From NCBI RefSeq assembly GCF_032116555.1, contig NZ_CP134949.1:2294001-2358000 (forward strand): a stretch of 64,000 bases of DNA. Reading direction: 5' to 3'. Source of the stretch: Halorarum halobium (GTDB lineage Archaea; Halobacteriota; Halobacteria; Halobacteriales; Haloferacaceae). The position numbers were made by a program. Shown here piece after piece: positions 12,001 to 18,000 of the stretch (position 1 is the first letter of the stretch; each line of letters begins with the position of its first letter).

Positions 12001-15000
12001 TTCCGCTATCTGTTTGCGTATTGTAGTGAGTTAATAAAGGTGACCCTATTTAGGCTTGAAATGTATATTTGAGGTTTCTTCTGTCACCTACCAGAGTCGT
12101 TAAGAGTGTCTCCGTGTGTTACCTTGCCAATGAAGCCACGCCCACCGTGGGCAAGTAAGTACGATGAGCCAATTCTTGAATTATTAGACGATTCTGAAAC
12201 AGTTCTTCCGCCTGCTGCTGTAGAGTTTAATTTGGATTACAAGGGTATTGCATCACCTGCATACTCTACAGTCAAGCGAAGGATGAGAAAACTCGCTGAA
12301 CACGGTTTCCTAAACCGGGTTGAAGGAAAATCTGGATACTATGTCATAAGTGATTGTGGTAGAGCATATCTTTCTGGAGAACTGGATGCCGACGATTTCT
12401 GATCTACTATATTGCGCTCGGTCCACACAAGGGAGCCACTCCCGCAATGGCTTCAATCGGCCATCCCTCAATTTGAGAGAGAAGCTGGTACACGAGCTGG
12501 ACGAGACATTTCTGATTGAGATTTAAACTACAGGAGAAAAGAAAACCGCGTCGAAACTATTTATACGAGCCTTTTTAACCGTTTAAATTCGTCAGAGTTA
12601 GCAATCTCATCTAGTGATGTCTCCCAGTCATCATAAATATCTGATTCGATTTCATCAACGTATTCGTCGATTTCAGTAGATATCTGTTTGTATAGCGCTT
12701 TAGCACGCCTAATTTTGGATCTTGCTTTTTCAACTCTCTTCGGGAGGTTTTTGCCTTCATATGAGGAGGCGATATGGTCACAGGCCCAAACGTAGTGATC
12801 CCAAGAACCCTCCGCCTTACCCCATCCTGTGTTCGCTGGTGTGACTGACCCATCGAACAGATCGCTTTCATATGGAGACTTGGTGCGGATTTTTTCTTCA
12901 TCAAAACCTGGTTCTTTATATAGCTCATCGAGGAGGCTATCAGGCCTAATTGATGTGAGTAACTCGTCGGAATAGTATCTAATAACAGGCGTTCTAATCT
13001 GAGTTTCGTCTGGAACAATCCACCTTTCTGTATCGAAACTCCTCAAATTCTTGTAGTGTCCAGAGCCAACTGCATTGACCCCAATAGCGAATAGGAGATG
13101 AGCGATTTGGTGAGTGTGCGCAGCGATAACATTGTATCTATTAACCCTAAGTGTCGCCATCAATTCGAGGTAAGAGGTTACTTTTTCCACACCTTGTAAT
13201 GGCAACCTCGTGTCTCTATCTGAATATGATACTGAAACATAGAACCCATCAGTATCCAATTCTGTTGCCGAATCCATCAATTGATTTCGGATTTCAAGGT
13301 TCGTTAAACGATCGCCATTAACGGGTAGAGAAAGATAGACCGGAATATCTCTCCCCTCAGACCGTGCAATTTCTAGGAATGCCTCAGTGAAATCTTGCCA
13401 ATCATCGATTTCCTCTGCCGAAAGTTCTCCGAGATATGACGATGGAGAGAGATAGGCATTAGTGTCATAATCATCTTGCGCCTCGATAACCAATTTTAGA
13501 AATTCGTCTCTCCGTTCTGTATCAAATAATACGCCGCTAGTATAGTCCTCACCACCGTATTTCTCGTGGTATTCATATTCATTCAGATCCTTCCGATCCC
13601 CCTGACCAGGTAGGTAAAGGTGGGGATCAAACAGTGTGACTAAGTCTTCAGAATTTAAGCTATTGGCCAGCTCCTTGTTCACTTCCGGTTTATAGTCTGT
13701 CGGGCTGAGTATAGCACCGTCAAGATGGTCTCCCTCAATTGCGTCATAGACGCGGTTCTTTCCATGATGCCCAACCTGAATTAGGTAGCTTGGTTTGTCA
13801 AACATTAGTTAGTCACCTCCAAGCTATCAAAGAAATCCTCCGCAAACTCCGGTTTTCGGAACCGTTTACTTGGGACCGGATTAGTTAACGTATCGAAGAA
13901 ATAATCTAAGTCTTCTCCTTCATCCCCATCAATATAATCTGTTAGACTTTGTTTATCGCCGTCACAGATTGCGTCTGTTACGGACTTTCCTCTGTCCTTA
14001 AATGGATGAACTCCTGTAATTGTCTCAAACATAACGACCCCAGATGAGAATAGATCTGTCTTGATACTTTGCTTACTCTTATCGTAATCAAGCTGCTCAG
14101 GAGCACCATAGAAAGGCGTCCCAAGTCGATCAAGATGATCCGGAGTCAAACTTTCCTTTTCCTCAAACCGCATGATTCCAACGTCCAAAAGCCGAATTTC
14201 TTCATCATCGGTTACCATGATATTGGCTGGTTTGATATCTCGATGAATCATCTCTTTCTCGTCAAATTCCTTAAGTATATCCAAGAGTGTAGAAATTGTA
14301 TACAGGCCAAAATCAAGTCCGAAGTTTCCATCTCCAATGTACTGTTCCAGTGTTTGGCCATTAATATATTCTTCAAATATAATGAATGTTTGTCTTCCAT
14401 CGATTTCTTCTTCATAGTAATCGATCAGATCAACAAATGTGTTCGACTCAATTTCTTTCATGGCTTCCCCTTCTCGATGAGCGCGCCTTCTTCTACTTCT
14501 GCGATCTACCGGTAGAAGTTTTAGAACGACCTCTTCGCCCCTATCATTGACGAGGAATACATCTTTGAACCCGCCAGAATCAATATGTTCTATTAGTTCG
14601 AGACCATCGAAGTGGGATTCAACCACATCGATATCATAAAACTTTGGCATTTAACTGCAATCTATAACTCCAACCGTAAATACTTCTAGGCTGACTTCTC
14701 GATGAGAGTGCTTTCGTTCAGCTTCCAACGATATAGCTCCGAATGGGGATTACCGCGACCTGGTTTATGATGCATGTAGCAATCCCCACTCTGGTCAATT
14801 GATAACAATCCAATATTGCGGCTTTTGAATTGTTCAAGATTATCCAAAGCAGGTTCAATATGGTCGTGGTCAAGAGCTACAAATTTATATTCTGCAAACG
14901 AACGTCCTCGGGATGCTTGTTTAATTGCTTTTTGCCATTTTCTTAACTTCAATTCAACTGCGACTGTTGTAGTTATGTGCCGCCGCAGATCGCAGGCAGT

Positions 15001-18000
15001 TTTAATTTTTCCTTCTTCCTCTTCTTGGACAAAGCCTCGATCCTTCAACCAGTTCAAGGACTCCCGTTTATACCGCCGCTTCAAGGCACCAATTTGATAG
15101 AAGTACTCCTCGGTGACAGCGCCATCTCTCGCATGCAACTGGAGGAATGTAATTAGGACATTCTTGTCCTCGATTGGTGTCTCTAGATTGAGCCGTTTAG
15201 TTCGTCTTTCCCAATATGGCTCTGAGACATTTACGAATACTAAATCAGTTCTTCCAGTCCCATATCCAAATTCAGTAAGAACCTCATAGTCTTTCTTACG
15301 TAAGGTTGAGGGTATTAGGTCCTGTGCCACATCCTTCATATCGTCCTCTGAATCAAATCCCATCAATTATCCTCCATTTTGGTCCGAGTCGTGGGCACCT
15401 TTTGGATTTAATGAATTAATAATACTTGGCATCTGGAATGTTCCGAAGGCAAATATTTTTTGGTTGTGAAAATGTAATATTAGCCGAAATTAACCCTTCA
15501 TCGACCCTCTCGCCTTGGCCAGTGAACTAACTGGATCATACGAAAGTACGCGGTCAGCCGCTTTCGGTTCCACAAGACCGTGATCGACGAGGTGACCGGC
15601 CATCATCTCCGGATCATGTATCGCAACGTTACACTTGCCACAGCGCCAGATTTCGCCTTTCTGGAGCGGCTTCGCTAACCGCGTCTCTTCGAGTACGTGC
15701 GTCTCCGGGAGGTGCAGCTGCACCATGTCGACGCCACCCTCACCGGGTGGGTGTTCCTCGCCGTCGGCGTCCACGATCGCGTCCAGGTGCCAGTCGGATT
15801 CGATCGGGGTCGCTCGTTGGAACGAGTCGACCCCATGACCAGCGTCGAGATCGTTGAGGAGATCCGCGACGAACTCGCGGTGGCGCGGGTCGATGCCGAG
15901 GTCACCGCACACGAACGCAACGGAGTGAACGGCGTCCGGATTCGCACGACGCCATCGGGTAACGAGTTTCCGAACGCGGGCTTTCTCGCGCGACTCACCG
16001 ACCGACGCAGCAGCGTCGGCATCGCGCCACAGTTCTGACAGGGACGGCTCCGTGTCCTCGGGGTCGTGCGGGTCGGGGAGCGCGTCCGCGAGTTCGTCAT
16101 CACCTACAGGTTCGTCCAGCCGGGACTGGTCGACTTGCCAGCCGGACGAGCAGCACGAGCAGACGACGTCGGGACCGTTCGCGTCGGACCACTCGATGTT
16201 CTCGCCGTGGTCGACGGACTGCGAGGCTTCAGCGGACTCAGCGCGCTGGCGACAGCGGTCGGCCGTGATGGCCTGGTTGACCACCTGCGAGCGCGACGTT
16301 CGCCGGCGCGACGCGGACCAGTAGAGCGCGCCCCACGCGAGGTATTCGACCGGCCGCTCTACCAGCCGCTCGTCGTACGAGCCGCCCATGTAGGCGGCGA
16401 GGTAGCTCCCGAGGTTCGACACGTCCATGTTCACCGAAATGCAGCCGTCCGACTCGCTCACGTAGTCGGAGACTGCCTCGTAGTCGTGCGCGGAGCGACC
16501 GGCCGGATCGCACACGTCGAGATGTTTCTCAACGATCCGCTCTAGCTCGGTGCCAATCTGCTGCCCGTCGAGGCCGGCGGCGTCGAGGTAGACGCCCACG
16601 TGCAGGTGCGTGTAACAGGCGTTCATGCCGGCGTACGCGTCCGGGTCAGCGGCAGCACCGACGCCGTGCGGTTCTGACTGGAGCCAGAACCCCCACTCGT
16701 TGGCGTCCAGTCCGAGATGGTACTCACACACGTTTCGCAGCGTGTCACGGACGCCGTCGTAACTCCAGGCGTCGTGCAGCGCGTCGAGGTGGTCCACAGG
16801 CGACAGCCGCTCACCACCGGGGACAGACGACGCTGTGAGCGTCACCATGCCCGTCGCAGGCCGTTCCCATGCAGAGACGGCGTCACCACCGGACGGACGT
16901 TCACCACCGCTCATCTGCCGCTGGAGCGCGCGAGCGCGGGCGTACTGCTTCGCGTGATACTCCGTTCCCCACGCGTCCGTCAACGGGAGTTCGAACGTCT
17001 CACCGTCGTCGTTCGCAAAGCGCGCCATCAACCCGTCGTAACGGGTGTGTGCGGTTAGGAACGCTTGCAGAGCTTCGCCCCACGTTGCAGCTTCGCGCCT
17101 GTCGAGTTCAGTCAGCGTGAACGCGGATTCGCCCTCACCGTCCGGGTCGACGTGTACGTCAGACCACTCAGCTTCCGTAACGATGCGGCGGAGTTTCCGC
17201 CCGTGCGTCTGCGACAGGGGAAGCTCGGCCAACTCCGGGTACGCCGCATAGAACTCACTCACGCGGTCGAGGACTGTCTCGGGAACGTCGTCCCCGTGAA
17301 AACGACCGGGAGAGGCCTCTACAGAGTTGGTCTCCTTGGAAGGCCAAGACTGGCCCTGGTCAGTCGGTGGCGCTTCCGGGCCGGCAGACCGGGACTCGGA
17401 GTCGTCGACTTTCGGAACGACGCGAACGTGATACGGCACCGAAGCCGACGGCTCTCCGGATTCGGCGCTGCCCGCGTCCGGTCCATCGACGGGTTCGCTA
17501 GTCACCGTCCTCGGCGGGAACCCACTGCGCCGCGTCTCGTTGCGAGGACACCGAGGTGTCCTCGCTGCGCGCCGGCTTCCGGGTCGGGGGCAAGCCCCCG
17601 CTTCCGGCGGGCGAGGCCGGGGCGGCCGCGTTAGCGCCGCGGCCGCCGAACACCGGCCTCGCCGCTCCGTCGCTTGCGGCGGATGCGACGAGGGTCGCGT
17701 TATACGCCCAGAGCAACCCGTCGACGCGCACGTCGATGAACTCACGCTGGAGATCGGGCGCTTTCACGCAGTGCTCACACTCCCGGTACCGGGCGTGCTC
17801 CGTGCGCGGCTCCGTGGTCACGAGGTACTGACAGCCGCGGCACTGGTACTCGATGAACCTCGGAAGGCCGGGGCCTCCGACGGCATTCGTGCCGCCGATC
17901 ATCGTCGCCTCCGTCGGGTCGAGCGCGCGTCCCCTGGGGAATCGTGTGTACCACCCGCCTGCCTACCCCCCAAAAGAGGGGCAGGCAGGCGGGGACGGGC

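Follow-up and report, generated by a model that had tools for sequence, protein, structure and literature searches.

The window analysed here is a 64,000-nucleotide stretch of the chromosome of Halorarum halobium. It contains three adjacent, co-oriented open reading frames for a predicted nuclease, a Ser/Thr kinase and a protein with the barrel fold of the tRNA-guanine transglycosylases (TGTs), set among the genes of an integrative element (Table 1). The kinase stop codon and the barrel start codon share one base. The G+C content of the barrel, kinase and nuclease genes is 0.435, 0.407 and 0.435 against 0.682 for the chromosome, where the fraction of same-size windows equally low is 8.7e-5. 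A leader presumed to hold the promoter carries a GGAGG ribosome-binding-like motif 7 bases upstream of the nuclease ATG. An earlier note on this DNA had described three low-GC genes flanked by an integrase, a DUF1424 Rep gene and tRNAs, and this layout is confirmed.

Table 1. Positions of the trio, its carrier element and the insertion site in the window
Feature	Position	Strand	Support
att core, tRNA-distal copy (left end of element)	10581..10597	.	identical to 18309-18325
SNJ2-type tyrosine integrase, 345 aa	10668..11705	-	PF00589 E 3.2e-5
Winged-helix repressor, SNJ2 Orf4 homologue	12130..12402	+	37.7% identity over 77 columns, E 3e-9
TGT-fold barrel, 414 aa	12561..13805	-	AF2 pLDDT 92.2
Hanks-type Ser/Thr kinase, RD type, 281 aa	13805..14650	-	PF00069 E 5e-30
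Predicted PD-(D/E)XK nuclease, 225 aa	14686..15363	-	AF2 pLDDT 91.4
AT-rich leader, presumed trio promoter	15364..15489	-	read from sequence
Rolling-circle-type Rep (DUF1424)	15490..17298	-	PF07232 E 4.6e-20
Target tRNA (CAT anticodon, 18313-18388) with 3'-end att core (18309-18325)	18309..18388	-	
Second tRNA	18477..18550		

The element is 7,728 bp long (~7.7 kb) and is framed by a perfect direct repeat (17/17 bases), of which the whole genome holds these two copies only. In a genome of the same genus the match begins at 18313 and none of the element is present. The integrase is 66.7% identical over its full length to that of the pleolipovirus SNJ2. The Orf4-like repressor is divergent from it and has an alternative, longer GTG start at 12106 besides its ATG. 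The Rep is 54.9% identical to that of Halorubrum virus Humcor2 and 29% to those of HHPV-1/2; its true start is uncertain, as the open frame extends to 17745. The arrangement resembles the integration-regulation module of the betapleolipovirus SNJ2 (PMC10123103) in its integrase, divergent repressor and tRNA 3'-end target. It differs in that 7.7 kb leaves no space for virion genes and the cargo slot holds the trio. No virion genes were seen in the element, nor any match to SNJ2 Orf2, 3, 5, 6, 7 or 8, and no known defence genes adjoin the trio in this copy. The carrier is best explained as a capsid-less integrative element derived from a pleolipovirus.

The kinase matches PF00069 with 105 bits against a cut-off of 31.7. 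Its sequence places it among the Hanks-type kinases, with the Lys-Glu pair, HRDxKxxN, DxG and an activation-loop Thr (T169); K44, E60, D138, N143, D156 and T169 are kept in 128 of 128 full-length homologues. The nuclease was previously assigned to the PD-(D/E)XK class, an assignment made firmer by fold matches of middling Z to PaqCI (Z 11.2, 130 aligned, rmsd 2.7), 3dnx (Z 11.0) and 2vld (Z 9.2), with a best Foldseek E of 1.3e-3. The invariant set given at that time is corrected to E6, D40, E137, K139 and Q149 (124/124). A winged helix, with winged-helix fold matches of its own, is inserted at about residues 61-126. The core fold and the E...D...ExK residues are those of the class, and nuclease activity is predicted from them.

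The barrel protein consists of a TGT-type (beta/alpha)8 barrel and a C-terminal subdomain, and the fold reported in the earlier note was reproduced. Its best matches are archaeosine TGT 1iq8 (Z 21.1, 308 aligned, rmsd 3.5) and TGT 3unt (Z 20.4), some 6 units above the best generic TIM barrel (Z 14.9), followed by QTRT2 (Z 17.0), Cap10 (Z 15.6) and DpdA (Z 15.3). The TM to Atlas clusters of PF01702 is 0.62; PF01702 itself does not match the protein. Neither barrel nor nuclease has a Pfam, PADLOC or NCBIfam family at E<0.05. Among 120 homologues of the barrel no family at E<=0.01 was common to more than one, and these homologues and the nuclease had no NCBIfam or Pfam match to the sce7725/sce7726 or phage P4 Beta families, a comparison made at family level. 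A PDB sequence search with the barrel profile gave nothing under E 0.48, and a BFVD fold search gave nothing clear (best E 3.2e-4, TM 0.31).

The residues of the barrel were mapped onto TGT by weak profile alignments (probability 4.3%, E 0.0095) and strand counting, with one sub-alignment setting the N-terminal strands one register off. G247 takes the place of the nucleophile Asp that ends strand 8 (E. coli D264, Cap10 D248). This column is Ala in 73%, Cys in 17%, Gly in 6% and Ser in 3% of homologues, with an Asp within 245-249 in 1/357. Where strand 4 ends, the base-reading Asp (E. coli D143, Cap10 D122) corresponds to S120/P121, and 0/357 have an Asp within 118-122. The CxCxxC of the CxCxxC...H zinc site is likewise found in 0/357, while its His (H337) is retained in 86%; in three of three distant kinase-free relatives CxCxxC stands at the TGT position. 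Counting strands puts D60 at the end of strand 3 (cf. E. coli D89, Cap10 D73), the N-terminal profile alignment there being non-significant and one strand off. On the same count, D60 and Y64 (conserved in 92%) occupy the places of the first Asp and the base-stacking aromatic of TGT. The family has a conserved pocket of its own at the strand ends, formed by Q10, G12, D60, Q62, Y64, P121, Y189, G249, N253, R255 and H337, with conservation across 20%-identical homologues of 100% for P121, 99% for D60, Y189 and G249, 94% for Q10 and 90% for R255. The barrel descends from TGT and, because the nucleophile Asp, base-reading Asp and zinc motif are absent, is predicted to be incapable of TGT chemistry as known. 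The host has a separate ArcTGT elsewhere in its genome.

The named barrel homologues of the earlier note were haloarchaeal, but a deeper search gave 394 representatives at 50% identity, mostly bacterial, and the trio is found in haloarchaea and many bacterial phyla. The order nuclease-kinase-barrel is intact in 131 of the 139 loci that lie off contig edges (174 in total) and in 8/8 other strong haloarchaeal loci. Of 80 metagenome loci, 55 keep it, 24 are truncated and one has no nuclease; of 85 genome and viral loci, 78 keep it, six are truncated and one has a split kinase. The trees of the three genes have 17/24, 17/24 and 21/30 supported splits in common, against at most 2 in shuffles. The three genes are one conserved unit. 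The trio is rare and its spread patchy, as suggested earlier: it occurs in 8/400 other Halobacteria and 0/400 other genomes in one bacterial phylum sample. G+C falls below that of the flanks in 63/80 loci. Kinase-barrel fusions occur in two Atlas clusters of Bacillota; no fused barrel was found among proteins of 763-2175 aa, a range that leaves out these 665-683-aa fusions. The barrel has no match in GenBank phages, and none of 79 pattern matches of the haloarchaeal profile in viral contigs was confirmed. A bacterial sub-clade search found five viral contigs, every one with the trio.

Models of R-M, BREX, AbiE, Thoeris and short-Argonaute partners are the best match for 22/211 flanking ORFs (13/80 loci) against 0/81 control ORFs, a narrower class picked after the matches were known and a control that is archaeal where the test loci are bacterial. 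With all PADLOC matches counted the contrast is modest (37/211 against 8/81). The trio lies within a type 3 BREX operon in two loci (L093 and L100). A calcineurin-like metallophosphoesterase (PF12850) follows the barrel in 7/8 other haloarchaeal loci and is absent from the window copy and all bacterial copies examined. The two haloarchaeal copies that lack it fall inside the haloarchaeal group in the kinase and barrel trees and outside it in the nuclease tree. No fourth conserved gene was found in bacterial loci, where the commonest neighbour families occur in 13, 12 and 9 loci.

A model of the kinase-barrel complex scored 0.69 and the best of three controls 0.00; the mark used is attained by 116/157 solved pairs and 2/215 mismatched pairs. 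The runs have at least 35% of contacts in common, with a partner pLDDT of at least 85. In the model the barrel docks on the back of the kinase C-lobe and its pocket is left free. Contact between barrel and nuclease is predicted with confidence in just the best of three runs and is lost on replacement of the kinase (score 0.00); the winged helix of the nuclease may be the part by which the barrel holds it.

Gene order, co-phylogeny, defence neighbours and the complex model indicate that the trio is one functional unit and probably defensive. To this extent the anti-virus system of the earlier note stands, with a TGT-fold protein tied to a kinase, but most copies are bacterial and it is not confined to haloarchaea. 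It is an even call that the trio is a self-contained, horizontally moving anti-virus switch with the barrel as sensor and brake, the kinase as relay and the nuclease as effector. In such a switch the non-catalytic barrel would bind a virus-related ligand in its remodelled pocket, such as a nucleobase, nucleotide, flipped base or peptide. Binding would lead to autophosphorylation of the kinase at Thr169, and the kinase would then switch on or release the nuclease, which would cut DNA and so abort the infection. In most haloarchaeal copies the metallophosphoesterase might reset the switch; the window copy would run without it. The order sensor-kinase-nuclease is plausible. It is possible, if doubtful, that the TGT pseudo-enzyme acts as the kinase's ligand-binding receptor, with a virus-specific nucleobase, nucleotide or modified base starting a phosphorylation cascade that arms the nuclease, in an immune pathway common to archaea and bacteria and unlike any described.

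The barrel could also be an active enzyme of new chemistry, for instance a hydrolytic N-glycosidase that uses D60, and could damage nucleic acid or mark it for the nuclease, the kinase only regulating the pair. This is unlikely, although it stands first among the alternatives. The strong conservation of the pocket is in keeping with it but is equally explained by a binding site, and no second conserved acidic residue lies on the catalytic face; QTRT2 (PDB title) is a precedent for a non-catalytic TGT fold. In a kinase-free variant (L021, L022) barrel and nuclease stay paired, together with a Panacea-like gene (hhalign 95.7% for both parts), which suits an enzyme working with the nuclease. As such a relative exists, the kinase is not required in every form, a point against the switch reading.

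Next in probability, and also unlikely, is an addiction module of toxin-antitoxin type that stabilises mobile elements and acts on viruses only secondarily, if at all. The trio is located on an integrative element, integrase neighbours recur around other loci, and beside the Orf4-like repressor it takes the slot where SNJ2 has a working HicBA-type toxin-antitoxin pair. A kinase-phosphatase toxin-antitoxin is known in KKP (PMC11341870). Against this, the three genes are long, their catalytic residues are fully conserved, and they are inserted within BREX operons and next to R-M. In six independent loci the only broken gene is that of the nuclease or the kinase (assembly errors are possible), so neither can be an essential antidote in those copies. 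The absence of loci with a broken barrel only was dropped as evidence, the loci having been chosen by barrel score.

The kinase may instead do the killing, like KKP or staphylococcal Stk2, restrained by barrel and phosphoesterase, with the nuclease as trigger maker or back-up, a reading rated slightly lower again. Of the contacts in the complex model, that between barrel and kinase is the robust one, the haloarchaeal phosphoesterase would fit, and PADLOC PD-T4-6 kinase models match the kinase at 2.6e-39. These matches are, however, confined to the generic kinase core (residues 18-223), most copies have no phosphatase, and the nuclease is present, at least partly, in 138/139 assessable loci with its five catalytic positions invariant. 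PD-T4-6 and Stk2 are single-kinase systems in which a stand-alone kinase is enough for defence. They are similar to the trio in using a Ser/Thr kinase, but the trio kinase gene is always within the trio. KKP is likewise a defence Ser/Thr kinase system on mobile elements with a phosphatase partner, as the four-gene haloarchaeal form has; it comprises two kinases and a phosphatase (PMC11341870), unlike one kinase with an obligatory nuclease and TGT-fold partner and an optional phosphoesterase.

The least likely reading is that of the earlier note, in which 7-deazaguanine in viral DNA is the specific target that the barrel recognises or removes, with a signal passing by way of the kinase to the nuclease. 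It has in its favour the TGT fold with D60 and Y64 placed as in TGT by strand count. About 30% of G in halovirus HVTV-1 is dPreQ1 (PMC6884629). Yet the nucleophile and base-reading sites are altered, and of the Cap10 set D73, D122, K154 and D248, as given in bioRxiv 10.1101/2025.04.06.647259, at most the D73 equivalent, placed by strand count, remains; no Dpd, Que or Qat model is among the shown best matches of 261 flanking ORFs; and the sensor might meet its ligand at home, since the host has DpdA genes beside queD-queE-folE-queC and its own DNA may carry such bases.

A defensive, non-tRNA use of the fold is not in itself new, contrary to the earlier note, Cap10 of type IV CBASS and DpdA being already published. 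Cap10 (PDB 9ntn; bioRxiv 10.1101/2025.04.06.647259) is also an anti-phage TGT-fold protein that holds a bound signalling enzyme inactive. It keeps nucleophile D248 and base readers and requires a QueC-like Cap9 and a CD-NTase, whereas the trio barrel lacks the nucleophile and partners a Hanks kinase. No type IV CBASS CD-NTase or Cap9 is present in the element or among the best matches of the 261 flanking ORFs. DpdA of Dpd islands and phages (PDB 7ui4) and the BREX-related capture (BRC) TGT (PMC12839542) are TGT folds outside tRNA in conflict systems. DpdA has been shown, and the BRC TGT is proposed (PMC12839542), to insert preQ0 into DNA, but the trio barrel has no catalytic Asp. No DpdB/C, Que, HerA or GNAT genes recur beside the barrel, the PADLOC DpdA model matches 0/120 family members with no Dpd or Que best match in the flanks, and the genuine DpdA genes of the host are 415 kb away from the trio. 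The TGTs themselves and QTRT2 are the best fold matches, and the kinase-free relative keeps CxCxxC, but the kinase-linked family has lost nucleophile, base-reading Asp and zinc motif. No description of the trio was found in the literature, although it could be listed among DefenseFinder models or in the supplementary data of large prediction papers; the word 'transglycosylase' is absent from the DefensePredictor main text.

The trio is directly testable because it is small, its catalytic mutants are obvious and both haloarchaeal and bacterial versions exist, and the three-gene and four-gene (phosphoesterase) forms provide a natural on/off comparison. If protective, it would be a compact immune pathway of three genes, present in both prokaryotic domains, with phosphorylation apparently joining sensor to nuclease. 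It would also be the third defensive reuse of the TGT fold after DpdA and Cap10, here as a pseudo-enzyme.

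The earlier note had described a low-G+C trio encoding a nuclease, a Hanks-type Ser/Thr kinase and a TGT-fold barrel, a relative of tRNA-guanine transglycosylase. All three genes were recovered where it had located them, and the low G+C was confirmed (0.41-0.44 vs 0.68 for the chromosome), the trio being about the lowest chromosomal stretch. The kinase and barrel genes are coupled, with a stop/start overlap of one base.

Coordinates of the trio and of other features in the window
Feature	Position	Strand
Nuclease gene, 225 aa	14686-15363	minus
Kinase gene, 281 aa	13805-14650	minus
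Barrel gene, 414 aa	12561-13805	minus
Small ORF upstream of Rep	17498-17902	minus
tRNA	18313-18388	
Recombinase and transposase region	60847-62888	

The best fold matches of the barrel were TGTs, with Z scores of 21.1 and 20.4. TGT ancestry is supported by a haloarchaeal relative that lacks the kinase (profile probability 95.7%) and still keeps a CxCxxC at the position of the TGT zinc motif. Two kinase-free loci (L021:6484-8739 and L022:7619-9853) hold a SocA/Panacea-like gene, a 160-aa PD-(D/E)XK nuclease and the zinc-motif barrel; at L023:7844-8950 the barrel alone was recognised. The CxCxxC motif occurs in none of 357 homologues of the window barrel. Residues were mapped by a profile alignment to 17 TGTs, which is weak (probability 4.3%, E 0.0095) but brings strands 4-8 and the final His into register. 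On this weak alignment, the E. coli TGT residues D143, D264 (the nucleophile) and H333 correspond to S120/P121, G247 and H337, respectively. Among the 357 homologues, an Asp was present at 245-249 in one and at 118-122 in none. The residues D60, Y189, G249, P121, Q10, Y64 and R255 are 90-100% conserved in the same set. Strand count puts D60 at E. coli D89, the sub-alignment of this region being non-significant and one strand off, and we infer that the two residues match. As Asp is almost never found at these positions, the CxCxxC is missing and the barrel conserves residues of its own, the protein is best regarded as a TGT that has been disarmed and has a conserved pocket of a new kind. That the barrel instead performs a new chemistry is unlikely.

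The kinase residues K44, E60, D138, N143, D156 and activation-loop T169 are kept in 128/128 full-length copies, and E6, D40, E137, K139 and Q149 of the nuclease in 124/124. The nuclease is predicted to have a PD-(D/E)XK core, with residues 61-126 forming a winged helix. S208 of the nuclease, conserved at 98%, and T169 of the kinase are candidate phosphorylation sites. A calcineurin-like metallophosphoesterase lies directly after the barrel in seven of the eight haloarchaeal loci besides the window. It is lacking in the window copy, in one close relative and in every bacterial locus examined. In loci L013-L019 this fourth gene encodes 228 aa with intact metal motifs, and its product may be the phosphatase of the kinase.

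Counting the window copy itself, the barrel has 74 close relatives; its representatives at 50% identity number 394. Its Atlas neighbours are bacterial, and among them are two clusters in which kinase and barrel are fused. Within Halobacteria, 12 of 401 genomes match the barrel, nine of them strongly, and the order nuclease-kinase-barrel is the same in all eight strong loci other than the window. One bacterial sub-clade yielded 283 metagenome and 147 genome matches, from each of which 80 were kept, and in addition five viral contigs. Named genomes belong to Acidobacteria, Planctomycetes, Myxococcota, Bacteroidota, Cyanobacteria, Proteobacteria, Chloroflexi, Bacillota and others, and the trio is also found on a Bacillus plasmid. 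The earlier note's reading of a haloarchaeal system is not borne out. The 174 loci comprise 131 intact copies, 35 at a contig edge and eight that are broken or lack a gene; the three gene trees, built from 54 trios, largely agree. The trio is one unit, both haloarchaeal and bacterial, and is rare (0/400 further genomes in a sample of one bacterial phylum). Decayed copies (L142, L156, L168, L194, L055, L072/L162 and L198) have the nuclease broken or missing in four loci, the kinase broken in two independent loci and both kinase and barrel affected in one; L142 and L156 carry about 1.3 kb of inserted DNA. In 12 bacterial loci the barrel is followed at a short distance by a member of a ~210-aa family (L073:3042-3686 and relatives), which may be a spurious frame and has no match in Pfam or PADLOC.

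The carrier in the window is a 7,728-bp element delimited by a 17-bp repeat of a tRNA 3' end. Its integrase has 66.7% identity to that of the pleolipovirus SNJ2, its repressor resembles SNJ2 Orf4 and its Rep has 54.9% identity to Humcor2 Rep; SNJ2 Orf2, 3, 5, 6, 7 and 8 had no match when searched against it. In a genome of the same genus the tRNA is present and the element wholly absent. We interpret the carrier as an integrative element that derives from a pleolipovirus and has no capsid. The tabulated tRNA was called tRNA-Met by ARAGORN; CAT is the anticodon of three tRNAs in the genome, one of them intron-bearing, and from archaeal tRNA sets this one is presumably tRNA-Ile2. The small ORF has two CxxC pairs and is without a Pfam match. 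Elsewhere on the chromosome, 2,388,374-2,389,250 and 2,354,980-2,355,054 show 67-79% identity to the integrase region of the element. Another island starts at the right end of the window: G+C falls to 0.55, and a tyrosine recombinase occupying two ORFs precedes a DDE transposase. On this reading the trio occupies the slot that in SNJ2 holds a toxin-antitoxin pair (PMC10123103). That the trio is itself an addiction module is improbable.

Of 211 ORFs flanking the 80 metagenome loci (236 before removal of near-duplicates), 37 had PADLOC matches at E<=1e-8, compared with 8 of 81 in a control set drawn from the window and tgt loci, without taxon matching. In a class picked post hoc, best matches to R-M, BREX, AbiE, Thoeris or a short-Argonaute partner numbered 22 ORFs in 13 loci and none in the control. 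The window copy has no such neighbour. At L093 and L100 the genes on either side of the trio are pglXI and brxHI, within a BREX operon. Type 3 BREX operons contain or adjoin the trio at L093, L097, L100 and L212, pglXI/brxHI flanking it wherever both flanks are visible.

The three-chain model in which the barrel was the partner scored 0.69, and the best of three controls 0.00; the score mark, which 116 of 157 solved pairs and 2 of 215 mismatched pairs attained, is only a rough guide for a three-chain job with these alignments. At least 35% of contacts were common to runs, and partner pLDDT was at least 85. In the firm predicted contacts, residues 250-276 of the kinase touch barrel helices 174-182, 218-223 and 405-412, at a distance from the active site of the kinase and from the pocket of the barrel. 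Contacts between the nuclease winged helix and barrel 274-333 appeared in the best run only, and replacement of the kinase lowered the score to 0.00. As a prediction, the model supports binding. It is quite improbable that the kinase is itself the killer, in the manner of the kinase-kinase-phosphatase module KKP (PMC11341870).

Sensing of 7-deazaguanine by the barrel, as the earlier note proposed, is very unlikely: modified haloviruses exist (HVTV-1, PMC6884629) and D60/Y64 may be a remnant of a base pocket, but three of the four base-reading and catalytic residues of Cap10/TGT are lost, Dpd/Que models are not among the best matches listed for 261 flanking ORFs, and the host owns DpdA genes adjoining queD-queE-folE-queC. 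These, the genome's only such que-folE genes, lie in a low-GC dpd-like island separate from the trio (L223:7474-16989, chromosome about 2,721,470-2,730,990). Also in this island are genes for a DpdA protein of 967 aa that includes a DpdC/DUF6884-like part (PADLOC DpdA E 3.4e-53), for another TGT-family member, of 344 aa, and for a BrxC/D-type ATPase.

A defensive, non-tRNA use of the TGT fold, which had been claimed as new, is already published for Cap10, the BRC systems (PMC12839542) and DpdA. No published description of a nucleophile-less TGT-fold protein coupled with a nuclease and a Hanks kinase was found in a search that ran without the DefenseFinder models and the supplements of large prediction papers. 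The trio is outside all families tested as systems. A defence role of some kind is probable, and there is an even chance that the trio is a defence switch. In such a switch, the barrel would be a non-catalytic sensor and brake acting on the kinase, the kinase would serve as relay and the nuclease as effector, and the phosphoesterase would provide an optional reset.
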